Source: Escherichia coli
GTDB taxonomy: Bacteria > Pseudomonadota > Gammaproteobacteria > Enterobacterales > Enterobacteriaceae
Assembly (NCBI RefSeq): GCF_002854065.1
Contig: NZ_CP024147.1
Length of the DNA stretch: 64,000 nucleotides
Reading direction: 5' to 3' (one strand)
A program made the position numbers and the translations under genes. The notes under the pieces were generated by a model. That model saw only the letters and a list, made by a program, of their open reading frames with translations. It ran no database searches and was not told the origin of the DNA. Positions 4,662 to 54,077 of the stretch are shown one piece after another. Position 1 is the stretch's first letter. The number at the start of each line of letters is the position of its first letter.

Positions 4662-5699
4662 ATGGGGCAACAAAAGCAGCGTAATCGACGTTGGGTTCTG
4701 GCCTCGCGTCCACATGGCGCACCAGTTCCGGAGAATTTCCGTCTTGAAGAAGATGATGTCGCCACACCGGGTGAAGGACAGGTGTTACTGCGCACAGTTT
4801 ATTTGTCCCTGGACCCGTATATGCGTGGACGTATGAGCGATGAGCCATCTTATTCACCGCCGGTTGATATTGGCGGCGTGATGGCCGGCGGTACGGTGAG
4901 CCGTGTCGTGGAGTCGAATCATCCTGATTATCAGCCTGGCGATTGGGTGCTGGGCTACAGTGGATGGCAGGACTATGACATATCCAGTGGTGATGATCTG
5001 GTGAAACTTGGCGATCATCCGCAAAATCCATCGTGGTCGCTGGGTATGCTGGGGATGCCAGGCTTTACCGCTTATATGGGGCTGCTGGATATCGGTCAGC
5101 CTAAAGAGGGCGAAACGTTGGTGGTAGCTGCGGCGACAGGACCAGTGGGGGCGACGGTGGGGCAAATCGGCAAACTTAAAGGTTGCAGAGTGGTGGGGGT
5201 AGCCGGTGGCGCGGATAAATGCCGCCATGCTACCGAGGTGTTAGGCTTCGATGTTTGCCTTGATCACCACGCGGACGATTTTGCCGAACAACTGGCGAAA
5301 GCGTGCCCAAAAGGTATTGATATCTATTATGAAAACGTGGGCGGTAAGGTATTTGATGCAGTGCTACCATTACTTAATACATCTGCGCGCATTCCCGTTT
5401 GTGGCTTAGTGAGCAGCTATAACGCTACAGAGCTACCACCCGGTCCGGATCGTTTACCCCTGTTGATGGCAACGGTGCTGAAAAAACGTATTCGCTTGCA
5501 AGGGTTTATTATCGCCCAGGATTATGGTCATCGCATCCATGAGTTTCAGAAGGAGATGGGGCAATGGGTGAAAGAGGATAAAATCCACTACCGCGAAGAA
5601 ATTACTGACGGTTTAGAGAATGCGCCACAGACGTTTATCGGCCTGCTGAAGGGTAAAAACTTCGGCAAAGTGGTGATCCGCGTGGCGGGTGATGATTAA
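4662..5699 (+). CDS. curA: NADPH-dependent curcumin/dihydrocurcumin reductase (MDR superfamily)
   Basis: Start MGQQKQRNRRWVLASRPHG after AGGAGAG ribosome-binding site; 345 aa; medium-chain dehydrogenase Rossmann motif AAATGPVGATVGQIGK. Confidence 0.85.
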   Translation: MGQQKQRNRRWVLASRPHGAPVPENFRLEEDDVATPGEGQVLLRTVYLSLDPYMRGRMSDEPSYSPPVDIGGVMAGGTVSRVVESNHPDYQPGDWVLGYSGWQDYDISSGDDLVKLGDHPQNPSWSLGMLGMPGFTAYMGLLDIGQPKEGETLVVAAATGPVGATVGQIGKLKGCRVVGVAGGADKCRHATEVLGFDVCLDHHADDFAEQLAKACPKGIDIYYENVGGKVFDAVLPLLNTSARIPVCGLVSSYNATELPPGPDRLPLLMATVLKKRIRLQGFIIAQDYGHRIHEFQKEMGQWVKEDKIHYREEITDGLENAPQTFIGLLKGKNFGKVVIRVAGDD

Positions 5700-11625: not shown

Positions 11626-12599
11626 TGCGCTCCCTGATTGCTTTAATGAAAAAAGTCTTTTATGTCGCCATGAACAATGTTTATTCATCCTGGCGATGAC
11701 AAGATTCACCATTATTCTTTATGGGTATAACTGTCGGCGCAGAATCCTACCTTTTATCGTGTAACGATGCAAAATAATCCCACTATAAATGTGAGGGGAT
11801 AAAGGCAGCTGGCGACAAAATAGCAACCTGATGAAATTATGACGGAAACAACCACTATTGGTTCGATGATACTCGACTGTCGCCGACTCTTTAGCCAATC
11901 GTTTGTCGCTCTGAGCGCAAGTGGTTGCAGTGGACACTGGTGTGGTTGGTTTTCGCTGATTATCATTGAATAGTGAGGGACCAGCGCATGAGTGGTTTCA
12001 GGGGTAATACGCCAAATACCAATACAATTGCTGATTAGAAATGCCAGTTGTCGAGGTCACAGAAAGTGCAAAAAATGTAAGAGTGATATCGGGTGACAAT
12101 TGTGCTATTGCCCAGCAGAAATTTTTTAAATTAGTACTGTTCCAGGGGCATTACAAACCTTAAAACATTACTTCAATATAATTAATGTGTATATCATTCT
12201 TGATATTAATTTATGAAGTGAATTTGATATATTCCGAATTCTTAATTTACATTACTAATGTATGGGACATAACGTTAAGATGGCTATGTGCAGATTAAGA
12301 TATCAGGGTGGGGCGGTAGCGTTTACAGATATTAATTAATTGATGAGAGCTATGTTATCCGCACAATCATTTACATCAGCTATTGATATTGAAGATAGAT
12401 AAATAAATATGCTGAGAATTAATGTTAAGGAATCGTAATGGGAAACTTTGATAACTTGCTTTGATTTCATTCTCTATGAAGATGATGTCATCAACACTGC
12501 ATAAAGTGGAAATATTGAACATCAAAGAGAACCATATTTAATAAATAATAACAGAGCGTTTGTGTTTATCTGAAAAATATCATTTCCAGGAGGTAGGAT

Positions 12600-15298: not shown

Positions 15299-15513
15299 GG
15301 GCACCCCTCCGAAATCTTCACCGTGACACCCCGCCCGGTATCAAATCCGGCCTCTTTCAGCCAGTCGCCCTTAAGGTTCAGGCTGGGGTGTCGTGAGTAG
15401 TACGTGGTCATGTAGGTTTTGCTGTTTATGTGGCGGGCTCTGACATAGCCGACTTTATAGCGTCGCTGTGTTTTGGAAATGGTGACTTCTGGCGTAATAT
15501 CGTGTTCAGCCAT
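15286..15513 (-). pseudogene. SymE-like (AbrB-fold) type I toxin, N-terminal ~76 aa, 3-prime end replaced
   Basis: AGGAG ribosome-binding site plus ATG at 15513; [34 protein letters not shown] aligns with SymE (...[38 protein letters not shown]); after EGC the frame runs antisense into the Rhs/vgrG remnant. Confidence 0.5.
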
Positions 15514-33822: not shown

Positions 33823-36800
33823 ATGGACGTCAGTCGCAGACAATTTTTTAAAATCTGCGCGGGCGGTATGGCTGGAACAACAGTAGCGGCATTGGGCTTT
33901 GCCCCGAAGCAAGCACTGGCTCAGGCGCGAAACTACAAATTATTACGCGCTAAAGAGATCCGTAACACCTGCACATACTGTTCCGTAGGTTGCGGGCTAT
34001 TGATGTATAGCCTGGGTGATGGCGCGAAAAACGCCAGAGAAGCGATTTATCACATTGAAGGTGACCCGGATCATCCGGTAAGCCGTGGTGCGCTGTGCCC
34101 GAAAGGGGCCGGTTTGCTGGATTACGTCAACAGCGAAAACCGTCTGCGCTACCCGGAATATCGTGCGCCAGGTTCTGACAAATGGCAGCGCATTAGCTGG
34201 GAAGAAGCATTCTCCCGTATTGCGAAGCTGATGAAAGCTGACCGTGACGCTAACTTTATTGAAAAGAACGAGCAGGGTGTAACGGTAAACCGTTGGCTTT
34301 CTACCGGTATGCTGTGTGCCTCCGGTGCCAGCAACGAAACCGGGATGCTGACCCAGAAATTTGCCCGCTCCCTCGGGATGCTGGCGGTAGACAACCAGGC
34401 GCGCGTCTGACACGGACCAACGGTAGCAAGTCTTGCTCCAACATTTGGTCGCGGTGCGATGACCAACCACTGGGTGGATATCAAAAACGCTAACGTCGTG
34501 ATGGTGATGGGCGGTAACGCTGCTGAAGCGCATCCCGTCGGTTTCCGCTGGGCGATGGAAGCGAAAAACAACAACGATGCAACCTTGATCGTTGTCGATC
34601 CCCGTTTTACGCGTACCGCATCTGTGGCGGATATCTACGCGCCTATTCGTTCCGGTACGGACATTACGTTCCTGTCTGGCGTTTTGCGCTACCTGATCGA
34701 AAACAACAAAATCAACGCCGAATACGTTAAGCATTACACCAACGCCAGCCTGCTGGTGCGTGATGATTTTGCTTTCGAAGACGGTCTGTTCAGCGGCTAC
34801 GACGCTGAAAAACGCCAGTACGATAAGTCGTCCTGGAACTATCAGTTCGATGAAAACGGCTATGCAAAACGCGATGAAACACTGACTCATCCGCGCTGTG
34901 TGTGGAACCTGCTGAAAGAGCACGTTTCCCGCTACACGCCGGACGTCGTTGAAAACATCTGCGGTACGCCAAAAGCCGACTTCCTGAAAGTGTGTGAAGT
35001 GCTGGCCTCCACCAGCGCACCGGATCGCACAACCACCTTCCTGTACGCGCTGGGCTGGACGCAGCACACCGTGGGAGCGCAGAACATCCGTACTATGGCG
35101 ATGATCCAGTTGCTGCTCGGTAACATGGGTATGGCCGGTGGCGGCGTGAACGCATTGCGTGGTCACTCCAACATTCAGGGGCTGACTGACTTAGGCCTGC
35201 TCTCTACCAGCCTGCCAGGTTATCTGACGCTGCCGTCAGAAAAACAGGTTGATTTGCAGTCGTATCTGGAAGCGAACACGCCGAAAGCGACGCTGGCTGA
35301 TCAGGTGAACTACTGGAGCAACTATCCGAAGTTCTTCGTTAGCCTGATGAAATCTTTCTATGGCGATGCCGCGCAGAAAGAGAACAACTGGGGCTATGAC
35401 TGGCTGCCGAAGTGGGACCAGACCTACGACGTCATCAAGTATTTCAACATGATGGATGAAGGCAAAGTCACCGGTTATTTCTGCCAGGGCTTTAACCCGG
35501 TTGCGTCCTTCCCGGACAAAAACAAAGTGGTGAGCTGCCTGAGCAAGCTGAAGTACATGGTGGTTATCGATCCGCTGGTGACTGAAACCTCTACCTTCTG
35601 GCAGAACCACGGCGAGTCGAACGATGTCGATCCGGCGTCTATTCAGACTGAAGTATTCCGTCTGCCTTCGACCTGCTTTGCTGAAGAGGATGGTTCTATC
35701 GCTAACTCCGGTCGCTGGTTGCAGTGGCACTGGAAAGGTCAGGACGCGCCGGGCGAAGCGCGTAACGACGGCGAAATTCTGGCGGGTATCTACCATCATC
35801 TGCGCGAGTTGTACCAGGCCGAAGGTGGTAAAGGCGTAGAACCGCTGATGAAGATGAGCTGGAACTACAAGCAGCCGCACGAACCGCAATCTGACGAAGT
35901 AGCTAAAGAGAACAACGGCTATGCGCTGGAAGATCTCTATGATGCTAATGGCGTGCTGATTGCGAAGAAAGGTCAGTTGCTGAGTAGCTTTGCGCATCTG
36001 CGTGATGACGGTACAACCGCATCTTCTTGCTGGATCTACACCGGTAGCTGGACAGAGCAGGGCAACCAGATGGCTAACCGCGATAACTCCGACCCGTCTG
36101 GTCTGGGGAATACGCTGGGATGGGCCTGGGCGTGGCCGCTCAACCGTCGCGTGCTGTACAACCGTGCTTCGGCGGATATCAACGGTAAACCGTGGGATCC
36201 GAAACGGATGCTGATCCAGTGGAACGGCAGCAAGTGGACGGGTAACGATATTCCTGACTTCGGCAATGCCGCACCGGGTACGCCAACCGGGCCGTTTATC
36301 ATGCAGCCGGAAGGGATGGGACGCCTGTTTGCCATCAACAAAATGGCGGAAGGTCCGTTCCCGGAACACTACGAGCCGATTGAAACGCCGCTGGGCACTA
36401 ACCCGCTGCATCCGAACGTGGTGTCTAACCCGGTTGTTCGTCTGTATGAACAAGACGCACTGCGGATGGGTAAAAAAGAGCAGTTCCCGTATGTGGGTAC
36501 GACCTATCGTCTGACCGAGCACTTCCACACCTGGACCAAGCACGCCTTGCTCAACGCAATTGCTCAGCCGGAACAGTTTGTGGAAATCAGCGAAACGCTG
36601 GCGGCGGCGAAAGGCATTAATAATGGCGATCGTGTCACTGTCTCCAGCAAGCGTGGATTTATCCGCGCGGTGGCTGTGGTAACGCGCCGTCTGAAGCCGC
36701 TGAATGTAAACGGTCAGCAGGTTGAAACGGTGGGTATTCCAATCCACTGGGGCTTTGAGGGTGTCGCGCGTAAAGGTTATATCGCTAACACTCTGACGCC

Positions 36801-36870
36801 GAATGTCGGTGATGCAAACTCGCAAACGCCGGAATATAAAGCGTTCTTAGTCAACATCGAGAAGGCGTAA
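33823..36870 (+). CDS. fdnG: formate dehydrogenase-N alpha subunit (selenoprotein; UGA at 34408..34410 decoded as Sec)
   Basis: Tat signal MDVSRRQFFKICAGG; ORFs 33823..34410 and 34459..36870 are in the same frame, separated only by the in-frame TGA in ...DNQARV-U-HGPTVASL; total 1015 codons. Confidence 0.95.
34411..34450 (+). promoter_or_regulatory. SECIS element region (mRNA hairpin for SelB-directed Sec insertion)
   Basis: Sequence immediately 3-prime of the fdnG UGA (CACGGACCAACGGTAGCAAGTCTTGCTCC...) contains a GCAAG-TCTTGC stem-loop in the expected position. Confidence 0.5.
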
Positions 36871-39388: not shown

Positions 39389-40399
39389 TTAGCGACGGAA
39401 ATCAATCACCATACGGGCACGGATTTTGCCTTCTTCCATCTCGGTAAAGATGGTGTTGATGTCCGCTAACGGACGCAGGGCGACTTTCGGCACCACTTTG
39501 CCTTCGGCCGCAAACTGGAAGGCTTCGGTTAGATCCTGGCGCGTGCCGACCAGCGAACCGACCACTTCAATACCATCCAGCACAAGGCGTGGGATGTCCA
39601 GGCTCATAGATTCCAGCGGTAGACCGACAGCCACAACACGACCGCCTGCACGGACAGCATCAACTGCCGAGTTAAACGCCGCTTTAGCTACCGCTGTCAC
39701 CACCGCGGCGTGAGCGCCACCGGTTTTATCCTGCACAATTTTGGCGGCGTCTTCGGTGCGTGAGTTAATCGCTAAATCTGCGCCCATTTCGGTTGCCAGT
39801 TTTAACTGCTCATCATTGACATCAATGGCGATCACTTTCGCGTTAAAGACATTCTTCGCGTATTGCAGGGCGAGGTTACCCAGACCGCCAAGACCGTAGA
39901 TAGCAATCCACTGACCGGGACGAATTTTTGACAGTTTAACGGCTTTGTAGGTGGTGACCCCCGCACAGGTAATGCTGCTGGCCGCCGCCGAGTCCAGACC
40001 ATCTGGCACTTTTACCGCGTAATCGGCGACCACGATGCACTCTTCCGCCATCCCGCCATCAACGCTGTATCCGGCATTTTTAACTGAACGGCAGAGCGTT
40101 TCGTTACCACTGTTACAGTATTCGCAATGACCGCATCCTTCGTAAAACCACGCCACGCTGGCACGATCGCCTGGTTTTAATGAAGTAACACCAGGGCCAA
40201 CTTCTGCCACCACACCGATGCCTTCATGGCCCAGAATTACGCCAGTTTTGTCACCAAAATCGCCATTCTTAACATGAAGATCGGTATGACATACACCACA
40301 ACACTCCATTTTCAGCAGGGCTTCGCCATGTTTCAGTGAGCGCAGTGTTTTATCCGTAACGTCAACATGATGATCCTTCGTAACAACTGCAGCCTTCAT
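39389..40399 (-). CDS. adhP: alcohol dehydrogenase, propanol-preferring (Zn-dependent)
   Basis: AGGAGGAAC ribosome-binding site then [13 protein letters not shown]; 336 aa; Zn-ADH motifs ([17 protein letters not shown]). Confidence 0.9.
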
Positions 40400-40532
40400 A
40401 GTTCCTCCTTTTCGGATGATGTTCTGCATAGCAGGTGAGGCAAATGAGATTTATTCGCCACTACCCAGTATGGATGAGATCTGAAAAAGGGAGAGGGAAA
40501 TAGCCCGGTAGCCTTCACTACCGGGCGCAGGC

Positions 40533-42230
40533 TTAGATGGAGGTACGGCGGTAGTCGCGGTATTCGGCTTGCCAGAAATTATCGTCAATGGCTTGTTGCA
40601 AAGCTTCGGCAGACGTTTTCACCGCCACGCCTTGCTGCTGCGCCATTTTGCCAACCGCAAACGCAATTGCGCGGGAGACTTTCTGAATATCTTTTAGTTC
40701 CGGTAGTACCAGACCTTCGCCGTTCAGCACCAATGGTGAATACTGCGCCAGCGTCTCACTTGCCGACATCAGCATCTCATCGGTGATACGTGACGCGCCG
40801 GAAGCAATAACACCCAGCCCGATGCCTGGGAAAATAAAGGCGTTGTTACACTGGGCGATAGGGTAGATTTTATCTTTCCATACCACTGGATTAAACGGGC
40901 TGCCCGTGGCGACCAGCGCGTTACCTTCGGTCCAGGCGATAATGTCCTGCGGTGTGGCTTCCACGCGTGACGTCGGGTTAGACAGTGGCATCACGATCGG
41001 ACGCGGACAGTGTTTATGCATCTCACGGATGATCTCTTCCGTAAACAGCCCGGTCTGTCCTGAGACGCCAATCAGAATATCTGGTTTTACATTGCGCACC
41101 ACATCCAGCAGTGACAACACATCGCTGTCGGTATCCCAGTCACTGAGGTTTTCGCGCTTCTGCACCAGTTTGGTCTGGAAAGGCAGCAGGTTCGGCATCT
41201 TGTCGGTCAGCAAGCCAAAGCGATCGACCATAAAGACTTTCTGCCGCGCCGCTTCCTCGCTTAATCCTTCGCGCTGGGTCTGGGCGATGATCATTTCGGC
41301 AATGCCGCATCCCGCTGAACCTGCGCCAAGGAAGACGATTTTTTTCTCGCTTAACTGACCACCTGCCGCGCGGCTTGCTGCGATCAGGGTGCCGACTGTT
41401 ACCGCCGCAGTGCCCTGAATGTCATCGTTAAAGGAACAAATTTCATTGCGATAGCGGTTAAGTAACGGCATCGCATTTTTTTGTGCGAAGTCTTCAAACT
41501 GCAACAGCACGTCCGGCCAGCGTTGTTTCACAGCCTGGATAAATTCATCAACGAATTCATAGTATTCGTCGTCAGTGATACGCGGATTACGCCAGCCCAT
41601 ATACAGCGGATCGTTAAGCAGCTGTTGGTTGTTGGTGCCGACATCCAGCACCACCGGAAGGGTATACGCCGGGCTGATGCCGCCACAGGCGGTATAGAGC
41701 GACAGTTTACCGATCGGAATGCCCATCCCGCCGATGCCCTGGTCACCAAGCCCCAGAATACGTTCACCGTCAGTCACCACAATCACTTTAATATTATGGT
41801 TCGGCACGTTTTGCAGAATATCGTCCATATTGTGGCGGTTCTGGTAAGAGATAAACACGCCGCGTGAACGGCGGTAGATCTCAGAAAAACGCTCACAGGC
41901 TGCGCCGACGGTTGGGGTATAAATAACAGGCATCATCTCATCAAGATGATTGTTTACCAGACGGTAGAAGAGGGTTTCGTTGGTGTCCTGGATGTTACGC
42001 AGGTAGATGTGTTTGTCGATTTCGGTTTTGAATCCCTGATACTGGATCCATGCTCGTTCCGCTTGTTCTTCGATGGTTTCGACCACTTCCGGCAGTAACC
42101 CCAGCAGGTTGAAGTTACGGCGTTCTTCCATGCTGAAGGCACTGCCTTTATTCAACAACGGAAATTCCAGCAGTACAGGGCCAGCGTAAGGGATATAAAG
42201 CGAACGCTGTTTTTTTGTTTTTGGTTCCAT
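40533..42230 (-). CDS. maeA: NAD-dependent malic enzyme
   Basis: Start [23 protein letters not shown]; 565 aa. Confidence 0.9.
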
Positions 42231-42385
42231 GTCACTCACTCTTTTTTGAATATCCATCCCTGGGGGCTTTTATCGTCTTTGCTTTACCGCCAGGGCGTCG
42301 GCCCCAAGTATAAAGCAGATAAAAACAAAAACACCATTGCGCAGGCAATGGTGTTTAATCGTCATTGAGGACTGATGGTTATGAA

Positions 42386-42523
42386 TTACTTTTCAGCGGG
42401 GCGTTTTCTGCCGGTTGGGTTATTTACCACGCTAGATTTGTCACCTTCGGTAACTATTTTGCGCTGGTTAGATATTTTATGGTCCAGTCCAAGAATATGA
42501 CGTGCCTGACGGTTCGATTTCAT
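42386..42523 (-). CDS. sra: stationary-phase-induced ribosome-associated protein (45 aa)
   Basis: Minus-strand ORF encoding [45 protein letters not shown]; under 60 aa so absent from the ORF track. Confidence 0.85.
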
Positions 42524-42624
42524 TTTAACTCCTCAATCCTGTTGCTAGTTTTAAGGACAACATCGCCGTAGCGAAGAAACACGTGCTAAACCCCTAAATT
42601 AGGTTGCCGATCAAGCATAGCACC

Positions 42625-42840
42625 TTAAAGCGTAGGGTGCTGGCCACTGACCACATAATTGATCGTTTGCTGGTAGATATCACTGAGGATGTCGTTATCA
42701 GAAGCTTCCACCCATTTGGTCAGCTCCATGAGAATGTCATCTTCAGTGACAACACCGTGCTCTGCCAGAAGGCCTTGCTCAATGGCATTAACCAGAGCGG
42801 GTTCTGCTGTTGAATTTTCTGCCTGATAATAAGTAAACAT
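42625..42840 (-). CDS. bdm: biofilm-dependent modulation protein
   Basis: GGAGA ribosome-binding site then MFTYYQAENSTAEPALVNAIEQG; 71 aa. Confidence 0.8.
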   Translation of the reverse strand: MFTYYQAENSTAEPALVNAIEQGLLAEHGVVTEDDILMELTKWVEASDNDILSDIYQQTINYVVSGQHPTL

Positions 42841-43185
42841 AGTGATTCTCCGTGTCTGTGTATTTATGGTGTCTGCTACGGATCGCAGATTTATAAAGCA
42901 CATTCAGCATGGCAAATATTTGCCGCTTCGTTGTTGAGATTAGTCCTGGTTGATGATTTTTATATTTTAACCCTATGATATTGATAGGTATTATTATTGT
43001 GGTGAGTTGATTGATATTGATGCAATATCTCTTGAGATATATATTCCCGGTTATCTATTGTGGGAATTTAATTTAAGTGCAGAAGTAATATTTTCTGCCG
43101 GATTTTATTCGGAATATCCTGCTTATCCTCGTGCTGTTTCTCACGTAGTCTATAATTTCCTTTTTAAGCCCACAGGAGAGCAACA

Positions 43186-43617
43186 ATGACAATCCATAAG
43201 AAAGGTCAGGCACACTGGGAAGGCGATATCAAACGCGGGAAGGGAACAGTATCCACCGAGAGTGGCGTGCTGAACCAACAGCCGTATGGATTTAACACGC
43301 GTTTTGAAGGCGAAAAAGGAACCAACCCTGAAGAACTGATTGGCGCAGCGCATGCCGCATGTTTCTCAATGGCGCTTTCATTAATGCTGGGGGAAGCGGG
43401 ATTCACGCCAACATCGATTGATACCATCGCCGATGTGTCGCTGGATAAAGTGGATGCCGGTTTTGCGATTACGAAAATCGCACTGAAGAGTGAAGTTGCG
43501 GTGCCGGGTATTGATGCCTCTACCTTTGACGGCATCATCCAGAAAGCAAAAGCAGGATGCCCGGTCTCTCAGGTACTGAAAGCGGAAATTACGCTGGATT
43601 ACCAGTTGAAATCGTAA
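43186..43617 (+). CDS. osmC: osmotically inducible peroxiredoxin OsmC
   Basis: 143 aa; OsmC/Ohr fold with the two conserved Cys (AACFSMAL, GCPVSQ). Confidence 0.9.
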   Translation: MTIHKKGQAHWEGDIKRGKGTVSTESGVLNQQPYGFNTRFEGEKGTNPEELIGAAHAACFSMALSLMLGEAGFTPTSIDTIADVSLDKVDAGFAITKIALKSEVAVPGIDASTFDGIIQKAKAGCPVSQVLKAEITLDYQLKS

Positions 43618-43632
43618 AGCGTTGCAGGATGA

Positions 43633-43660
43633 CGCGTCAGGCGCGTGAATGCCTGATGCG
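43633..43660. repeat. REP-like palindrome / terminator between osmC and ddpF
   Basis: CGCGTCAGGC-gcgtgaat-GCCTGATGCG. Confidence 0.4.
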
Positions 43661-43672
43661 TTGTTAGCATCT

Positions 43673-44599
43673 CTACAGCGCCCGCCAGCACCGGAGCTCA
43701 CGTCCGTCCTCCCTTATTGCTAATGATTGCCGGACTTCGCATCCGCTGGTTGCAAGGGGGCAACGTTCGCGGAAAAAACAGCCTTGCGGCAACGTGCGGT
43801 TTCCCGGCAGTTCCGTTTTACGTAATGCCCATTCTTCCTCCAGCGGTTTATCAATGGCGGGGAGGGAGTCCAGCAATAATCGGGTGTACGGATGTGCCGG
43901 AGCCGTCAGTACCTGTTGCGCGTCGCCCAGTTCTACAATCTGCCCGAGATACATCACCGCTACCCGATCGCTCATATGACGAATCACCGAGACATTGTGT
44001 GAGATCAGCACATAGGTCAGCCTGCGATTTACCTGTAGCGTTATCAGTAAATTGAGGATCTGCGCCTGCACGGAGATATCCAGCGCCGAGGTTGGCTCAT
44101 CAAGCACAATCACGTCAGGCTGCGAAGAGAGTGCTCTGGCAATGGCGATGCGTTGCCGCTGCCCGCCGGAGAACGCATGAGGCAGGCGGTCGAGATACTC
44201 CGGACGAATACCCACCTGCACAGCCAGCTCCTCTGCCAACGCTCGCCGCTGTTGTTCACTACTACGCTTAGCTATCCAGAGCGGTTCTGTGATGATGCGC
44301 CACACCGGTAAGCGCGGATTGAGCGAAGAGAGCGGGTCCTGAAACACCATCTGCATAATGCGTTGTGAGCCAGAACGGATGTACTGCCCGTGGCTCGGTT
44401 GCAGCATACCCATTAAAAGCTGTGCGAGGGTGCTTTTGCCGCAGCCTGACTCGCCGACGATCCCTAAGGTTTCACCACGGCGGATCTGTAAATCAATACC
44501 ATTAATGGCATGAACATGTTCCGTAGTTTTACCAAGCCAGTTTTTACGGGCCGGGAAATTGATATGGACGTCGCGTAACGTTAATAACGTGTCAGACAC
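43673..44599 (-). CDS. ddpF: D,D-dipeptide ABC transporter ATPase
   Basis: 308 aa; Walker A GESGCGKST. Confidence 0.9.
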   Translation of the reverse strand: MSDTLLTLRDVHINFPARKNWLGKTTEHVHAINGIDLQIRRGETLGIVGESGCGKSTLAQLLMGMLQPSHGQYIRSGSQRIMQMVFQDPLSSLNPRLPVWRIITEPLWIAKRSSEQQRRALAEELAVQVGIRPEYLDRLPHAFSGGQRQRIAIARALSSQPDVIVLDEPTSALDISVQAQILNLLITLQVNRRLTYVLISHNVSVIRHMSDRVAVMYLGQIVELGDAQQVLTAPAHPYTRLLLDSLPAIDKPLEEEWALRKTELPGNRTLPQGCFFRERCPLATSGCEVRQSLAIREDGRELRCWRAL

Positions 44600-45578
44600 T
44601 TATGACCTCCTGCTGCGGATACCAACAGGCGCAGCGCTGGTTGTTGTCACCACACGCTGTCAGCGCCGGGACGTTTTCACACTGTGCACCTGCCGCATAG
44701 CAACGATCGCGAAAAGCGCAGCCGTCAGGCAAATGGGTGAGGTTTGGTACCGTCCCTGGAATGGCGGGTAATGGCTGGCGTGGTACTCCATGTTCTGGTG
44801 CGCATTGCAGCAAACCAATGGTATACGGATGCCGGGGATGATGGATAACGTCTGCCGTCACGCCGCTTTCAATTACGCTTCCGGCATACATCACGTAAAC
44901 GCTATCGCACAGTTGCGACACCACGGCCATATCATGGCTGATGAACAGTACCGCAGTTCCACTAGCGCGGGCTTTATGTTTAAGCAAACGCAGTACCTGC
45001 AACTGTACCGTGACGTCCAGCGCCGTAGTCGGTTCGTCGGCAATAATCAATTGCGGCTCGCAGGAGAATGCCAGCGCAATCATTACCCGCTGGCGCATAC
45101 CACCTGAAAGCTCAAACGGATAGCGCGACATAACTTCCACGGCATCCGGGATTTGCATCTCTTCCAGCAGGGCAATCGCTTTAGCTCTGGCTTCCCGACG
45201 ACTTATTGGTTGATGATGGCGGATCACGTCCATCATCTGAAGACCTATTCGACGTGTCGGATTGAGGGCGGTCATCGGTTCCTGAAAGATCATCGCCACT
45301 CGTGCGCCGCGCCACTGACGAAGCTGTTTTTCCCGAGCGTTAAGAACATCGTCTCCCAGCAGTGAAATCTGCCCCCGATGTACGCAATAACTGCCCGTCG
45401 GTAGCAGACGCATAATCAGCATTGCGGTGACTGATTTACCTGAGCCGGATTCTCCCACCAGACCGACAATTTCACCGCGGTTAATCTGCAAGGACACATT
45501 GTTGAGCGCGTGTACATCACCGTTAAAACCGGGGAAACTCAAATGCAGTTGTTGAATGTCCAGAACGGGTTGGGTCAT
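44592..45578 (-). CDS. ddpD: D,D-dipeptide ABC transporter ATPase
   Basis: 328 aa; Walker A GESGSGKS; overlaps ddpF and ddpC. Confidence 0.9.
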   Translation of the reverse strand: MTQPVLDIQQLHLSFPGFNGDVHALNNVSLQINRGEIVGLVGESGSGKSVTAMLIMRLLPTGSYCVHRGQISLLGDDVLNAREKQLRQWRGARVAMIFQEPMTALNPTRRIGLQMMDVIRHHQPISRREARAKAIALLEEMQIPDAVEVMSRYPFELSGGMRQRVMIALAFSCEPQLIIADEPTTALDVTVQLQVLRLLKHKARASGTAVLFISHDMAVVSQLCDSVYVMYAGSVIESGVTADVIHHPRHPYTIGLLQCAPEHGVPRQPLPAIPGTVPNLTHLPDGCAFRDRCYAAGAQCENVPALTACGDNNQRCACWYPQQEVISV

Positions 45579-46471
45579 GACTGCTTTCCTCCTGCTTTCG
45601 GGTCAAGCAGATCGCGAATACCATCACCAAAGAGATTAAACCCGACGGCGGTAAGCAAAATCGCTGTCCCCGGAAATGCGCAATACCACCACTGATCGAG
45701 TACATAGTTGCGACCATTCGCTACCATCGCGCCCCATTCAGCACTCGGTTGTTGAGCACCCAGGCCAATAAATCCCAACGTGGCGGCCATTAAAATCGCG
45801 CTACCGATATCCAGCGATGCCTGCACGATCAGCGACGGCAGGGAGTTACGTAAAATATGCCAGTTGATCAGATGCCAACGCGACGCGCCAAAGGTTTTCG
45901 CCGCCTGAACATAGGTATACTGGCGTACAACTAATGCTTGCCCCCGCGCCAGGCGCACATAAAAGGGAATTCGCACAATAGCAATCGCCAGCATGGCGTT
46001 AAATAAACTCGGCCCGAGAGCGGCAGCCAGTGCCATTGTCAGTACCAACGAAGGAATCGACAGCATAATGTCCATGATGCGCATGATGATGGCGTCTGCG
46101 CGTCCGCCAAGCACACCGGATAGACATCCGAGTAGCGAACCAATCATACCCGCAATGGCGACCACCACTAATCCGGCGAGAATTGATTGCTGACTGCCGA
46201 CCAGTACGCGGCTGAACAGATCGCGTCCCACTTCATCGGTGCCAAACCAGTGCGCCGCAGAAGGCGGCAAAAGGCGGGCGGTTAAATCAATGGCGTTGGG
46301 ATCATGCGTCGCAAGCCACGGTGAAAAAATCATCATCAATAGCATTAATACAATGATGACTGCGCCGGTCACGGTGAGCGGACTGCCTTTCAGCATCCAT
46401 ACCAGTTTTGCACCGTTAAATCGCGTTTGTTTTTGTGGGCGTACGGCGGACGTTTCCTCGCTTAGCATCAT
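45575..46471 (-). CDS. ddpC: D,D-dipeptide ABC transporter permease
   Basis: 298 aa membrane permease. Confidence 0.9.
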   Translation of the reverse strand: MMLSEETSAVRPQKQTRFNGAKLVWMLKGSPLTVTGAVIIVLMLLMMIFSPWLATHDPNAIDLTARLLPPSAAHWFGTDEVGRDLFSRVLVGSQQSILAGLVVVAIAGMIGSLLGCLSGVLGGRADAIIMRIMDIMLSIPSLVLTMALAAALGPSLFNAMLAIAIVRIPFYVRLARGQALVVRQYTYVQAAKTFGASRWHLINWHILRNSLPSLIVQASLDIGSAILMAATLGFIGLGAQQPSAEWGAMVANGRNYVLDQWWYCAFPGTAILLTAVGFNLFGDGIRDLLDPKAGGKQS

Positions 46472-47490
46472 TCACCACCTCCACGTCCGATACGCGGATC
46501 AATCCACAAATAGAGCAAATCCACCACCAGGTTGACCAGCACATAAGCAAATGAAACCACGACGGCAAAGCCCATCACTGCCGGGAAGTCGAGCGCCTGT
46601 ATTGATGTTACTACCCATGCCCCCATTCCGGGCCAGGCAAAAACGGTTTCGGTGAGCACTGCGCCATACAACAAATCGCCCAGCGCCAGACCCAATACGG
46701 TAATCGATGGGATCAACGCATTGGGTAGCGCATAACATAAAACGATATACCAGCCGGGCAAGCCGCTGGCCCGGGCGGTACGAATGTAGTCTTCACTCAA
46801 TTGTTCCAGCATCGCTGAGCGGATCTGGCGAGCGACAATTCCCAGGTGAACGAACGCCAGCGTTAATGCCGGTAAGATGAGATGTTGCAACGCATTGAAG
46901 AAGACTTCACTGTTGCCTTCAAGCAACGCATCGAGCAGATAAAAGCCGGTAACGTGCGTTGGTGGATCCAGCCAGTCATCAAGCCTTCCGCCGCCGGGAA
47001 GTATTTGCAGATGACCATAAAACAGCACAATGACGCCCAGCCCAAGCCAGAACGCAGGTGTGGAGATTCCGGTAATGGCCATTATTCGCACCAGATGATC
47101 CAGCCAGCGATTTCGCCAGACTGCAGAGAGTATGCCCAGCGGGATGCCAATCAAGAGTGCCAGCAGCAGGACACAAAAAGCCAGCTCCAGCGTCGCCGGG
47201 AAAAATATACGCAACTCTTCCAGCACCGGACGCCCGGTACGAATGGATGTCCCCAGGTCACCATGAAACAGATCGCTGACGTAGCGGTAAAACTGTACGT
47301 ACAGTGGCTGGTCCAGCCCCAGTTGCTGGCGAATATTTTCCACGATAGCATCGCTGGCGCGGTCACCTGCCAATAACCGCGCCGGATCGCCGGGGATCAG
47401 ATGCGAGATAATAAACGTAATCACACAGACCCCCGCCATCACGAGCACCAGCCCCCAACAGCGTTGGCGTAAAATACTCCAGAAGGTCAC
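46468..47490 (-). CDS. ddpB: D,D-dipeptide ABC transporter permease
   Basis: 340 aa membrane permease. Confidence 0.9.
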   Translation of the reverse strand: MTFWSILRQRCWGLVLVMAGVCVITFIISHLIPGDPARLLAGDRASDAIVENIRQQLGLDQPLYVQFYRYVSDLFHGDLGTSIRTGRPVLEELRIFFPATLELAFCVLLLALLIGIPLGILSAVWRNRWLDHLVRIMAITGISTPAFWLGLGVIVLFYGHLQILPGGGRLDDWLDPPTHVTGFYLLDALLEGNSEVFFNALQHLILPALTLAFVHLGIVARQIRSAMLEQLSEDYIRTARASGLPGWYIVLCYALPNALIPSITVLGLALGDLLYGAVLTETVFAWPGMGAWVVTSIQALDFPAVMGFAVVVSFAYVLVNLVVDLLYLWIDPRIGRGGGE

Positions 47491-47491
47491 G

Positions 47492-49042
47492 TTATTTACT
47501 CATGGTATTGATATTGAAGACCTGTTCCAGCATGGGATTGAACACAAAGCCTTTCACCTCTTTGTTCATCGCCAGTTGGTAGTTTTTCTGGAACAGGTAC
47601 ACATAAGCAGCGTCATCAATGACGATTTTCTGTGCCTGCTGGTAGTTCCGGGTACGCTGCGTCTGGTCGGTGGTCGCGAGCGCATTGCGCAGTAACTTAT
47701 CAACCTCACTGTTTTCATAGAACGAGCGGTTACCCGGCAGACCTTTTTTGTCGGACTCAAACCAGTAATTCATAAACATATACGGGTCGGCAAAATCCGG
47801 ACTCCAGTTGCCAATCGCAATGTCGTAATCACCTTTACCCACTCTGTCGCGCATGGTGGCGTTCGCCAGCTTTTCCAGCTTCACATTGATGCCCAGCTTG
47901 TTGAGACTGGATTGTGTCGCTAGAGCAATAGGCTCCCAGTTCGGATCATTATCAGAATAGAGAAACGTCAGGCTGGTGGGTTTGCTCTTCACTTTATCCC
48001 ATTCGGCTTTGGCTTTCGTTTCGTCATGGTTGTATTGCATTGCCGTCGCATCGTAGCCCCACATGCCTTCCGGAATCGGGCCGCGCATTTGTTTTCCGTT
48101 ACCACTCAGAATGCCGTTAACCATGCCCTGATAATCGGTAGACCAGGAAATGGCCCGCCGCAGCTCCGCCTGATTAAGTGGCGCTTTGCTGTTATTCAGA
48201 TACAGATAGGTGACGCGCAGTGACGGATACTCTGCCACATTGACTTTATTTTCCTACTTCAGGGCGTTGAGTTGATCCACCGGCAGCGCATCGGCAATGT
48301 CAATGTCGCCACGGGAGAGCTGCAGGCGACGGGAGGCACTTTCACCGATAATTTTTACCGATACTCGCTTAAAGTTCGGTTTATTGCCGGGGTAATGCGG
48401 ATTTGGCACCAGAACTAATTGCTGACCTTTTTGCCAGCTTTTCAGCATAAATGGTCCGGAACCGGCGGTATTTTGCGCGAGGAAGCCGCGGGCATCATCC
48501 GCCGCATGTTCCTTTAACACCGCCGGATTGATAATGGATGCACCGTCATTCGCCAGCGTGTAGAGGAACGGTGCGAATGGTTGGCTAAGGGTAAACTTCA
48601 CCGTATGTTCGTCGGGAGCATCAATCTTTAAATCTTTGGGAAATGCTTCTGCTGGCCCCTGGCCGATTTTTAGTAGCCGCTCAAAAGAAAGTTTTACTGC
48701 TTCGGCAGTGACAGGTGTGCCATCGGCAAATTTAGCATTATCTTTCAGGGTGAACGTCCACTCTTTTTGATCGTCAGACGCTTTCCAGCTACTTGCCAGA
48801 TCGCCTTCAACGTCGGTTGAGCCTTTATCACCGTCCGTTTTGTACTGAACCAGTCGCTGATAAGACGGGTAGGTCACCGTCCAGTCGTTATTATCTATTG
48901 TTACCGCCGGGTCGAGGGTTTGTGGATCGGCGGCCTTACCAATCACCAGCATATCTTTCGGTACGGCGGCGTGCGCAACCGGGAAAGTTGTGGCAAGGAC
49001 GAGCGCGAGCAATGTGGGACGAAACGATATCGATCTCTTCAT
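47492..49042 (-). pseudogene. ddpA: D,D-dipeptide periplasmic binding protein gene with an in-frame amber (TAG) codon at 48254..48256
   Basis: ORFs 48254..49180 (signal peptide MKRSISFRPTLLALVLATTFPVAHA) and 47492..48238 are in the same frame: ...PVDQLNALK-TAG-ENKVNVAEYPSLRV...; 517 codons in total. Confidence 0.8.
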
Positions 49043-49055
49043 GACAGTTTCCTGA

Positions 49056-49637
49056 TTAACTGACGTGCTGTGTGCCAGGGGATATAAAACAAGAGAATTG
49101 ATCAGCGAGCAGTGGGTAACTCGCTGCCTGGGGTAATTCGAAGTGCCACCATTCGCTGGAGATACCGACAAAACCGCCACCAGTCATAATCGCATTCAGC
49201 AACAGCCGATTGCGCTGAGCGGCGGGCGGGACGGAAGGATGGTAAGCATGGGAGCGCTCGTGCATTTCATCGAACCCTGCGCCCATATCGAGGATGTTCC
49301 CGTGCTCATCACGAAGCGTCAGGTCGATCGCCGTGCCACGGCTGTGATTAGAACCGACCGTCACATCAACAACATATTGCGGGTCTGGGCAGGCTTGCCA
49401 CAACATCGCCTGCGCTTGTTGTGGGCGATACGCATCGTAAATCACCAGTTGTAAGCCTGAGAGCTGGGCGATACTGATACTTTTCGCCAGCGCGGTAATC
49501 GCATCCTTGTGTAACAGACAACGCGCTTGCTGATAAATAGCTTTACCTGTGATGTTATCAGCGCAGGCGTATTTCAATTCGATCTCCAGATCAGGGAAGA
49601 TTACGGCTAAATCAACCAGTTCGGTGGTATCCGACAT
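49056..49637 (-). CDS. ddpX: D-Ala-D-Ala dipeptidase (VanX homolog)
   Basis: 193 aa; VanX-type Zn motifs (SNHSRGTAIDLT; WWHFE). Confidence 0.9.
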   Translation of the reverse strand: MSDTTELVDLAVIFPDLEIELKYACADNITGKAIYQQARCLLHKDAITALAKSISIAQLSGLQLVIYDAYRPQQAQAMLWQACPDPQYVVDVTVGSNHSRGTAIDLTLRDEHGNILDMGAGFDEMHERSHAYHPSVPPAAQRNRLLLNAIMTGGGFVGISSEWWHFELPQAASYPLLADQFSCFISPGTQHVS

Positions 49638-49861
49638 AAACGGTTCCTGTATAAGACAAAAATTGCTGCGCTTTCCGCTTATGCAGATCTCATGCCATGC
49701 CGGGATAAGCGCCAGAATGCTGGCTTAAAGTTATATTTTTTAACTTTTGATCAACATTTGTGCAGCGTAGTGCAGTTTTGGTGCAAGAGGGGAAGTTAAG
49801 GAAGGAATCTCCCGGAATCGTAGCTGAAATCACAGTATTTAAGTGACAGTGTCACGTTAAA

Positions 49862-49881
49862 TGAAAACCCGCGAGTGCGGG
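49862..49881 (-). terminator. rho-independent terminator of dosCP
   Basis: CCCGCACTCGCGGG stem followed by TTTTCATTT on the minus strand, just after the dosP stop. Confidence 0.5.
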
Positions 49882-49894
49882 CGAGAGGAATTTG

Positions 49895-52294
49895 TCAGAT
49901 TTTCAGCGGTAACACGCTGCTCATCCAGCCTGGAATTTCTTCGGCGGGCAGGGGGCGGGAAAAGAAATATCCCTGAATAACGCGACAGTGGATCTTGCGT
50001 AGCATCTCAAATTGCTCTTTGGTTTCGACGCCTTCCGCCACGACGGTTAAATTGAGGCTTTGCCCAATGCTGGTAATGGCTTCAAGTAAGGCAAGGATGC
50101 GTTTTTCCGTCAGACAACGATCGACAAAACTTTTGTCAATTTTGATTTCCGTTACCGGAAGACTGACTAAGCGGGATAATCCGGAAAAGCCCGTGCCAAA
50201 ATCATCTACCGATAAACCCACGCCCATATCACGCAGGATCTGAATGCGCTTAAAGATTTCGGTATCGTGTTCCATCATCATGCTTTCCGTGATTTCCACC
50301 GTCAGCTGGTGGCCGTCAATACCCCAGGCTTGCATTGCATCAGACACCTGATTAGGCAGTTGATTACTGCGAAAGTGCAGCGCCGACAAGTTCACGGATA
50401 ACGCCGGGATATGAATATTCTGGCTACGCCATTCTGCTAACTGACGGCAAGCTTCCGCGATGACCCTGCGCCCAATATTTTCGATTTCACCAATCTCTTC
50501 TGCGAGAGGAATAAACCGTGAAGGGGGCACATGACCATGCTGGGGATCGTGCCAGCGAGCAAGGGCTTCGATGCCGTACAGTTCACCCGTTTCTGCGAAG
50601 ATTTGCGGCTGGTAAACCAGTTTCAGTTGGTTATTGCTAATCGCTTCTTTCAGCGCTGCGCCTAAAACCAAACGCTCTTTTACCATTTCGTTCATCGCCG
50701 GGCTGAAGAACTGCCAGCCGTTACCGCCATTCTTGCGAATATAATCCATTGCATTGTGAGCAGTGGAGAGCAGGTAATCGCGGTTTTTACCCACGTCGTA
50801 GCTGATGCCAATACTCAAGGTAAGCGGGAAGGGTTTATCGTCAATCATTATCGGCTTGCTGACCACATTCCGTAGCTCATCGGCGATTTGGGTAATGTTA
50901 CTGACGTCGTTTTCCAGGCTCACGAGGACAAACTGCGTACCTTCGATACGACAGAGATACTGATCCGGTTTGAGTTTTTCACGAAAGCGATTGACCACTT
51001 CCAGCAATGCCTGATCGGCCCACGCATAGCCAAGGCTATCAATCACATCCTGAATATGGTCAACACCGATGAGATACACCACCGGAGAGACGGCTTTGTC
51101 GACCAGGTCATCGAGGTAATTGTGCAGGTTATTGCGATTTGGCAGACCGGTCATCGGATCAAATTGGATGAGTTGTTCAATATGCTGACGGCTTTTTTCC
51201 TGTTCCAGCGCCAGCGCGGCCATATGCTGGCTGATATCTGCCACGCGTTCGATAAAGGCGCTGGTTTCTGCTCCTGACGAGGTTTTAATTTGCAGGATCC
51301 CCGCAGGCGCACCATCACGCTGACGAATGGTCGCTGACCAGCTTTGCGCATTTTGAACTTCTGCACCGTGCGAAGATGACGCCCAGTGTATCGGCATCCC
51401 GTTGCGCAGTGCGAACAGCGAAACATGCGATTCGTTGAGAACAGATTCGATATTACGACAAATGATTTCCCCCATTTCATGAAATGGCGGGCTGCTGCAC
51501 ATGGCGGCGAGAATATTGCCTTCAAGCTGGCGGATCTGCCGTTCTTCGGTGATATCCGAGAAAGTCATTACCAGGTTCTGCAGATGCGCGAGCACGTCAT
51601 AAACCGGGCTGATAGAGGCTTTAATCCAGATTTTTTCACCGGTGCGCGTCAACAGCAGAAATTCGTCCTGATCGCGGGCGGTTTTCCATAGCAACTGTTG
51701 TAAACGAATGCGGTTATCGGCAGGGAATTCAGGAATGTTCAGGAGTGTATCGGGCTGCATACCGCTGGCTTCGCTAATGCAGTAACCAAACATTTCGGTA
51801 AATGCGCGATTGCACTGCACAATATGGCGTTCCGGATCGAGGACAATCACCGGTCGGTCGAGATGGTCAACGGCAATAATCAATTGTCTGGTCTGTTCTT
51901 TTTGCGCCATTTCTACGCTGGCATCCCGTACCAGCGCCAGGTAATAAACTTTCCCCTCGGCGCTCACTTTCGATAGCGCAAAACGGGTCCAGATTTTACT
52001 GCCGTCTTTTTTCTCCAGCTGCAGCTCCCGACTCATCCCCTCAACACGCGCTTTACCGCCTTCACGGTTATGACGAATGTATTCAGGATGCGCAGGACGC
52101 AAATCCCGCGGAATCAGCATATCAATGTTATTGCCAATGACTTCTTCACGTTTGTATCCCCAGAGCTTCTCTGCGGCGGGGTTGAAAAACATCACTTCAT
52201 CATTTTCGTTAATTAACACCGCACCCATCATATTTTGCTCAAGGGCGGGGAAAAAAATGCCATCGGCGGCATTATCCGCATCGGTTAGCTTCAT
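49895..52294 (-). CDS. dosP: oxygen-sensing c-di-GMP phosphodiesterase (PAS-GGDEF-EAL)
   Basis: Start MKLTDADNAADGIFFPA; 799 aa; EAL motif region. Confidence 0.9.
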   Translation of the reverse strand: MKLTDADNAADGIFFPALEQNMMGAVLINENDEVMFFNPAAEKLWGYKREEVIGNNIDMLIPRDLRPAHPEYIRHNREGGKARVEGMSRELQLEKKDGSKIWTRFALSKVSAEGKVYYLALVRDASVEMAQKEQTRQLIIAVDHLDRPVIVLDPERHIVQCNRAFTEMFGYCISEASGMQPDTLLNIPEFPADNRIRLQQLLWKTARDQDEFLLLTRTGEKIWIKASISPVYDVLAHLQNLVMTFSDITEERQIRQLEGNILAAMCSSPPFHEMGEIICRNIESVLNESHVSLFALRNGMPIHWASSSHGAEVQNAQSWSATIRQRDGAPAGILQIKTSSGAETSAFIERVADISQHMAALALEQEKSRQHIEQLIQFDPMTGLPNRNNLHNYLDDLVDKAVSPVVYLIGVDHIQDVIDSLGYAWADQALLEVVNRFREKLKPDQYLCRIEGTQFVLVSLENDVSNITQIADELRNVVSKPIMIDDKPFPLTLSIGISYDVGKNRDYLLSTAHNAMDYIRKNGGNGWQFFSPAMNEMVKERLVLGAALKEAISNNQLKLVYQPQIFAETGELYGIEALARWHDPQHGHVPPSRFIPLAEEIGEIENIGRRVIAEACRQLAEWRSQNIHIPALSVNLSALHFRSNQLPNQVSDAMQAWGIDGHQLTVEITESMMMEHDTEIFKRIQILRDMGVGLSVDDFGTGFSGLSRLVSLPVTEIKIDKSFVDRCLTEKRILALLEAITSIGQSLNLTVVAEGVETKEQFEMLRKIHCRVIQGYFFSRPLPAEEIPGWMSSVLPLKI

Positions 52295-52318
52295 GATTAC
52301 CTCTGCATCCTGGCGCAT

Positions 52319-53701
52319 CTAAAGACTGGCTTTCCAGAGTTCAACACGGTTTCTACCTCGTCTTTTGGCGATATACAGAGCTTCATCGGCTATTTGAATG
52401 AGGCGCTCATAGTCAGGATGACCATTAAACATGGCGGCACCGATGGAAAGTGAGAGGGCAATATCTTCGCCGTTTGCGGCTTTCAGTTTGGTTTTCTCCA
52501 CCCGACTGCGAATACGTTCTGCGGTACGTAACGTTTCGTTTTCAGAAGCTTCAGTCAAAACAATGATAAATTCATCGCCCCCGTAGCGGAAAACATAATC
52601 ACTACTGCGGACGTTGTCATAAAAGGCCTGAGAGACTTTACGCAGAATTTCATCGCCAGTGTTATGGCCCCACGTATCGTTGATCTCTTTGAATTTATCA
52701 ACGTCAATAATCAGCACTGACAGCGGTGTACCGGTCCGGTTGGCATGGGCAATTTCGCGTTTGAAGATAGTCGGCAGGAAACGGCGGTTAAGTAATTTCG
52801 TCAGTACATCCATACCGACTTCGTGGCGCGATACTTCTTCAAACAATTCACGCAGCAAGGTAATAATTTGCGATACGGTATTTCTTATCTGTAATAAAAA
52901 TTTCACCCGCAGACTTCTGTTATTCAAATTCCTGGTGTTACGCATGGTTTGATTGAAAATACCGTCGAAATCCTGAATCAGACGGGAGATATGGCCTACT
53001 TCGGCAATGCCACTAAAATAATGTCGACCTTTATGGTTAAACCACAGGCCAAAATCAGCCTGGCTTAAAGGCAAACTACTGCCTAAATCAGAATCCAGCA
53101 GGATTTTATAGATGATATCTATTTCCCATGAAAGTATTGAGGCTATTTGCCGTTCTTTTTCTTCTTCGGCGTTTTCCAGTAACGAGAAGATACGATAGTT
53201 TTCATCTTCTTTTGAGGCACTACTGTCACTAAAGGTAAACGCGCGGGTCATCACTTCCATAGCGATATCAATACTGTTAATCGAGAAATGGTAGACCTGA
53301 AGTTTTTCTGCGGCAGAATAATCCGAAGAGAAGATTACCGGATAGAGGATCTTTTTCAGCACCCGAAACCCCATCTCGACAATTTCTACCGGAATTCCTA
53401 TGCGGGCATGCACTTCCGCGACGGTATGCTGGATTTGTATTAGCCTTTCGGCATCGTCAACCTGGGCAGAAAGCACGTTAATAATCCAGCGTTCCATCGC
53501 ACTTTTCAACTGCCGCTCAACTTGTTCATTACCCAAGAATTCTTCGGCATGCGGGTCGATGCGGACAATTCGATAAAACTCGATACTCAGATAATGAGCA
53601 TGCGCAACGGCAATTTCCGCGGCTTTAGCACGAATGGGCGGATCTGCCTGCTCGACAAGTCCGGTCCACTCATCTTTCATTCTTTTAAAATACATCTCCA
53701 T
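52319..53701 (-). CDS. dosC: oxygen-sensing diguanylate cyclase (globin-GGDEF)
   Basis: 460 aa; GGDEF active site (RYGGDEF). Confidence 0.9.
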   Translation of the reverse strand: MEMYFKRMKDEWTGLVEQADPPIRAKAAEIAVAHAHYLSIEFYRIVRIDPHAEEFLGNEQVERQLKSAMERWIINVLSAQVDDAERLIQIQHTVAEVHARIGIPVEIVEMGFRVLKKILYPVIFSSDYSAAEKLQVYHFSINSIDIAMEVMTRAFTFSDSSASKEDENYRIFSLLENAEEEKERQIASILSWEIDIIYKILLDSDLGSSLPLSQADFGLWFNHKGRHYFSGIAEVGHISRLIQDFDGIFNQTMRNTRNLNNRSLRVKFLLQIRNTVSQIITLLRELFEEVSRHEVGMDVLTKLLNRRFLPTIFKREIAHANRTGTPLSVLIIDVDKFKEINDTWGHNTGDEILRKVSQAFYDNVRSSDYVFRYGGDEFIIVLTEASENETLRTAERIRSRVEKTKLKAANGEDIALSLSIGAAMFNGHPDYERLIQIADEALYIAKRRGRNRVELWKASL

Positions 53702-54027
53702 AATTCACACCCTTATAAGGCTGGGAAATCAGACGGAATCAAAATGAAACGCAACGTGCGAGATCGACTAACTGCACCATATTCTCCTGAAATATGAAGA
53801 TATACTGAAAAGAAATAAGCGACTTAGGACAGTTTCAATCTACGCTACTGTTCTTCAGAAGAGTATAGCCCATCGTAATTATTTTTCGGTGACTGCGAAT
53901 ATCGTATGGTTTTTCATATTCATACATTTTTATTAGGGGGATTATGGCTGTTTAACTAAGTGTGGTTAATTGTGTGGTTAATTTGACTTATGTAAGCATG
54001 ATTACTAGTGGGATATTTCAAGAGGGT

Positions 54028-54062
54028 AACAAGCCAGTGGGTAAAGCACTGGCTTGTTACAA
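54028..54062 (-). terminator. hairpin downstream of yddW
   Basis: GTAACAAGCCAGTG-ggtaaag-CACTGGCTTGTTAC perfect palindrome 16 bp after the yddW stop; no strong U-tract. Confidence 0.4.
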
Positions 54063-54077
54063 AGTAAAAATGGGAGT

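Follow-up and report, generated by a model that had tools for sequence, protein, structure and literature searches.

The ddpA gene in the window, a stretch of 64,000 nucleotides from Escherichia coli (contig NZ_CP024147.1), is interrupted at codon 263 by a premature amber codon, and we conclude that this lesion is very probably a nonsense mutation of single origin that has been inherited vertically, with a predicted loss of ddpA function. It is an ordinary lineage-specific nonsense pseudogene, and the same allele is already annotated in the public RefSeq record of a second strain, E. coli CUWW06. The gene belongs to the ddpXABCDF operon, encodes a family-5 periplasmic substrate-binding protein and occupies window positions 47492..49042 on the minus strand (1551 nt, 516 codons plus a TAA terminator, with an ATG start at 49042). 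The plus-strand bases at 48254-48256 are 'cta' and thus read as TAG on the minus strand, as the initial annotation of this DNA had claimed in placing an in-frame amber codon within ddpA at these positions. Translation of the minus strand over 49180..47492 yields a single unbroken DdpA-like sequence with one internal stop, which is located between ...PVDQLNALK and ENKVNVAEYPSL....

Comparison with the intact ddpA of E. coli XJ34 (DdpA WP_088376251.1), an orthologue in the same operon, revealed the nature of the lesion. The two genes are colinear over their full length, without indels, and differ at one of 1551 nucleotides, gene nucleotide 787 (plus-strand position 48256), where the window carries T instead of C (A instead of G on the plus strand); this transition converts CAG (Gln263) of XJ34 into TAG, so that the window copy stops at codon 263 of 516. 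Because the alignment is ungapped, the homology keeps to one reading frame across the TAG, as had been proposed from the sequence, and the suggestion that a frameshift artefact was unlikely proved sound: a frameshift or indel as the cause of the ddpA lesion was ruled out. The surroundings of the gene are more divergent than the gene itself, the XJ34 locus (L002) differing from window positions 39492-57042 at 71 positions and by two gaps over 17.5 kb (99.58% identity). To judge from these sequences, the presence of a ddpA allele that is identical except for the TAG base within this divergent region suggests mosaic, recombinant XJ34 and window haplotypes around ddp.

The frequency of the two codons was determined by megablast searches of 5426 complete E. 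coli genomes. With the whole gene as query, ddpA was found in 4280 genomes, the three best matches (XJ34, XJ6-3 and 100416) having scores equivalent to one mismatch, and no ddpA match was returned for the other 1146. Alleles were then scored with 55-mers that carry the variable base at position 28, such that every 28-nt megablast seed spans it. The TAG 55-mer matched a single complete genome, that of CUWW06, and the CAG 55-mer matched 3677 of the 5426; since about 600 ddpA-bearing genomes match neither 55-mer, presumably owing to SNPs on both flanks, both counts are lower bounds (at least 1 and at least 3677). CAG is the ancestral and majority codon at position 263, and TAG is a rare derived allele. 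The initial annotation had offered a CAG to TAG change as a guess and had recommended alignment with ddpA of other strains as a check; this alignment gives CAG (Gln) as the normal codon and bears out the guess.

The TAG allele is shared by several close relatives of the window. The complete genome of CUWW06 (NZ_CP182139.1), a wastewater isolate from Thailand, carries the same gene with the identical TAG at codon 263, likewise within a ddp operon flanked by dosP and osmC, and PGAP calls its ddpA (ACNHKQ_RS11390) a pseudogene with an 'internal stop'. The two regions are colinear over about 62 kb with 99.97% identity and 17 SNPs. The exact 262-residue product that precedes the stop is also encoded in two NCBI assemblies, GCA_900449015.1 (on a 4.74-Mb contig) and GCA_005041505.1, in the Logan assembly of SRR8838601 and on an ENA metagenome scaffold from ERZ28619825, and in all four sources it is followed by a 248-residue C-terminal ORF and then by intact ddpB and ddpC. 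By exact-sequence look-up, the N-terminal fragment was found on 55 public contigs (e.g. STH35767.1) and the C-terminal fragment on 77 (STH35766.1). In GCA_900449015.1, these two proteins, whose amino acid sequences are identical to those of the window fragments, were deposited as a pair of separate genes, each labelled 'ABC transporter substrate-binding protein', instead of a single pseudogene, and the dosP and ddpD genes of this assembly contain indels that are absent from the window. None of the five compared loci is identical to the window (99.91-99.96% identity over 6.8 kb), nor is any of the complete RefSeq E. coli genomes searched, and the variation among TAG carriers consists mostly of singletons, a pattern compatible with clonal expansion from a single mutation.

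Within this group, CUWW06 is set apart by two further derived substitutions in ddpA, the synonymous Q66Q and the missense R122W (L001 positions 8617 and 8451, window positions 48845 and 48679, respectively), at which XJ34 and all other TAG carriers have the same bases as the window. CUWW06 also has IS2 and IS1 insertions in this region that are absent from the window. The insertion sites correspond to window positions 4690-4694 and 12096-12104, both of which are empty, and the 5-bp and 9-bp alignment overlaps at these sites match the expected target-site duplications. Since it lacks both elements, the window represents a distinct member of the lineage that is IS-free at these two sites.

The position of the stop has clear consequences for the encoded protein. 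The N-terminal fragment (262 aa; 48257..49042, minus strand) retains a signal-peptide-like N terminus together with the first half of the SBP_bac_5 domain; with normal initiation it is expected to be the sole product. The C-terminal remnant (248 aa; 47492..48238, minus strand) begins at a GTG five codons 3' of the TAG and comprises the second half of SBP_bac_5 without a signal peptide. Gene callers report it as a separate gene, but it probably does not give rise to a functional product, and since it has no signal peptide it would remain in the cytoplasm even if it were translated. Intact DdpA matches positions 2-366 of the 368-position Pfam profile SBP_bac_5 (PF00496) in one piece (E 8.6e-102); SBP_bac_5 is its only domain, and the TAG splits it into two halves, the N fragment covering profile positions 2-185 and the C fragment positions 189-366. 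DppA, OppA and other family-5 (cluster C) binding proteins consist of two lobes, with the ligand bound between them. The PDB holds no DdpA structure, the best matches being other peptide-binding proteins (5u4o, and E. coli DppA in 1dpp and 1dpe). The solved homologues, including DppA, align with DdpA residues 36-509, which indicates that the fold needs the missing half.

Of the competing interpretations, the one that fares best holds that the allele is leaky rather than null, the UAG being read through by a suppressor tRNA or by near-cognate tRNA-Gln(CUG) to give useful full-length DdpA. We consider it improbable. In its favor, the ancestral codon is CAG, so that insertion of glutamine at the UAG would restore wild-type DdpA exactly; every transporter gene downstream is intact in both the window and CUWW06; and supE alleles, sought with a 55-mer containing the CUA anticodon, are present in 158 of the 5426 complete genomes. 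However, the supE carriers among the matches listed (60 of the 158) are all K-12 laboratory derivatives, and CUWW06, in which the suppressor check was conducted for the supE type, has wild-type anticodons throughout its glnX-glnV-metU-glnW-glnU-leuW-metT cluster (CUG, CUG, CAU, UUG, UUG, UAG and CAU, respectively). The CUG anticodons of glnV and glnX rule out a supE-type amber suppressor in this strain, and no tRNA gene is present in the 64-kb window. The radical change R122W in CUWW06 ddpA in turn weakly suggests relaxed constraint; it and Q66Q, both in CUWW06, are the only derived ddpA substitutions in addition to the stop and are too few for a test of selection. Basal read-through of UAG in wild-type E. 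coli is generally on the order of a percent or less. The more specific proposal that the TAG allele is a hypomorph, in which low-level glutamine insertion by near-cognate tRNA-Gln or another suppressor restores wild-type DdpA, is slightly less probable again; if true, it would explain why ddpBCDF have been kept intact and would constitute a natural down-tuning of D-Ala-D-Ala scavenging.

Considerably less probable is a sequencing or assembly error, in which the true base would be C (CAG) and the T a base-calling artefact. The initial annotation had left the choice between an error and a genuine nonsense pseudogene undecided, and a single-base substitution is indeed the type of error that an uncorrected assembly could hold. 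However, the identical T occurs in at least five other independently made assemblies of close relatives from different projects and sources (CUWW06, GCA_900449015.1, GCA_005041505.1, SRR8838601 and ERZ28619825), and it is not credible that the same random error underlies the split products on 55 and 77 contigs. Because independently sequenced relatives share the TAG, the error reading can be rejected without recourse to raw reads, and of the two readings it is the genuine pseudogene that stands.

Programmed recoding, with the TAG as a conserved functional stop of the selenocysteine or pyrrolysine type or as a regulated read-through site, has nothing in its favor beyond the in-frame stop itself and a negligible probability, being refuted by the population data, in which the stop is not conserved (TAG in 1 complete genome versus CAG in at least 3677), and by an Rfam scan that detected no cis element at ddpA although it did detect the SECIS of fdnG. 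E. coli is not known to possess pyrrolysine machinery. The fdnG gene (window 33823-36870, plus strand) offers an instructive comparison, since it too has an in-frame stop with homology on both sides, a TGA at codon 196 (34408-34410), the selenocysteine codon of formate dehydrogenase-N. Directly after this TGA lies an Rfam SECIS_3 match (34405-34463) that scores 84 bits, above the gathering score of 63. Unlike the fdnG TGA, which is recoded as selenocysteine, the ddpA TAG is a rare derived allele without such an element.

At the Rfam gathering score, the scan of the window returned only the fdnG SECIS and isrA, an Hfq-binding sRNA that was matched over its full length at 15314-15442 on the plus strand (119 bits). 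According to the CUWW06 annotation, isrA is antisense to a truncated SymE-family toxin remnant (about 15304-15513, minus strand), and the site adjoins remnants of Vgr/Rhs type VI secretion genes and an ISAs1 transposase.

The nonsense mutation in ddpA is located in an otherwise intact operon. The order dosP-ddpX-ddpA-ddpB-ddpC-ddpD-ddpF-osmC matches that annotated in CUWW06 and XJ34, and the assertion of the initial annotation that ddpX and the permease genes are intact holds for all five remaining ddp genes, which are full-length ORFs on the minus strand, have no internal stops and show 0-2 amino acid changes relative to XJ34: ddpX, encoding the D-Ala-D-Ala dipeptidase (193 aa; 49056..49637; no difference from XJ34), the permease genes ddpB (340 aa; 46468..47490) and ddpC (298 aa; 45575..46471), and ddpD (328 aa; 44592..45578) and ddpF (308 aa; 43673..44599), encoding the ATP-binding proteins. 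ddpBCDF are likewise full-length in CUWW06. In the window, the neighboring dosP forms one unbroken ORF (49895-52318, minus strand), whereas the XJ34 annotation gives it a frameshift and in GCA_900449015.1 and GCA_005041505.1 it has been called as two pieces (L002, L007 and L008).

The stop in ddpA may affect the expression of the downstream ddpBCDF genes. The GTG start of ddpB is located 1 nt past the ddpA TAA and no strong Shine-Dalgarno sequence is visible, an arrangement that suggests translational coupling of ddpB to ddpA. A scan for rut-like tracts 3' of the TAG returned one modest window (gene nucleotides ~1063-1140, C/G 1.8) and none that is clearly C-rich and G-poor. Judged from sequence features of this kind, polarity on ddpBCDF is plausible, with about 760 nt of mRNA left untranslated and the coupling lost. 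ddpX is the first gene of the operon and lies upstream of the lesion, out of reach of any polarity. In K-12, ddpXABCDF encodes a D-Ala-D-Ala dipeptidase and a transporter for the same dipeptide, and NtrC and RpoN (sigma-54) activate it under nitrogen depletion, a condition under which ddpF mRNA in the wild type rises 2.2-fold versus 104.5-fold for ddpX mRNA (PMC8743547). The transport function of DdpABCDF has itself been termed putative (PMC3173086).

Based on these observations, we propose the following course of events, in which the lesion, its ancestral codon, its spread across the lineage and the integrity of the neighboring genes are established by the sequences, and the losses of DdpA function and of D-Ala-D-Ala transport, as well as the polarity, are inferred. 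A C to T transition in a common ancestor turned ddpA codon 263 from CAG into TAG and was passed on within a small clonal lineage of E. coli, and release factor 1 would terminate translation at this UAG. The resulting 262-residue product would lack the second half of the family-5 solute-binding fold and could not form the two-lobed binding cleft, leaving the DdpBCDF permease without its cognate binding protein. ABC importers of this class depend on their binding protein, and the Ddp route is therefore expected to be non-functional, which would mean the loss of a putative route of D-Ala-D-Ala import. Expression of ddpBCDF may drop as well, through lost translational coupling or through Rho-dependent polarity over the untranslated segment; ddpX, upstream of the lesion, is unaffected. 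Given that NtrC and sigma-54 switch the operon on when nitrogen is depleted, the physiological cost is probably restricted to scavenging in starved cells. The intact state of the downstream ddpBCDF genes could mean that the loss is recent or that these genes are still useful.

Loss of ddpA is not confined to this lineage. Via two other fragment proteins from the same sequence clusters, we identified at least five further independent ddpA lesions in other E. coli assemblies (L011-L015), some of them from short-read or metagenome assemblies that may include errors, and the contig of L011 was seen in four samples. Three are nonsense lesions, at codons 318 (TAA), 305 (TAG) and 274 (TGA), and two are frameshifts, one caused by a 1-nt deletion at nucleotide 637 and the other by a 1-nt insertion at nucleotide 347 together with a 13-nt deletion at nucleotides 680-692. 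As in the window, ddpA is inactivated in an otherwise intact ddp operon, with ddpX intact in each case and ddpB-D mostly full-length (ddpB is shorter, 291 aa, in L012); in contrast to the window, the lesions are of other types and at other positions, and the ddpA alleles are more divergent, with 18-24 mismatches to XJ34. Together with the 1146 of 5426 complete genomes without a ddpA match, these lesions indicate that loss of ddpA is commonplace in E. coli, and the gene appears to be dispensable and recurrently lost. A search of the literature for a ddpA pseudogene returned nothing relevant; in the top hit, the name 'DDPA' denotes DAHP synthase.

The significance of the allele lies mainly in annotation. 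It is already public, flagged as a pseudogene in the RefSeq record of CUWW06 and deposited as split proteins in an NCBI assembly. The choice between an error and a real mutation can be resolved without reads by asking whether independently assembled genomes of close relatives carry the allele. For this lineage, a single ddpA pseudogene (Q263*) should be annotated at the locus, in place of the two substrate-binding-protein genes that some deposits show, and metabolic reconstructions of these strains should not assume Ddp-mediated uptake of D-Ala-D-Ala.
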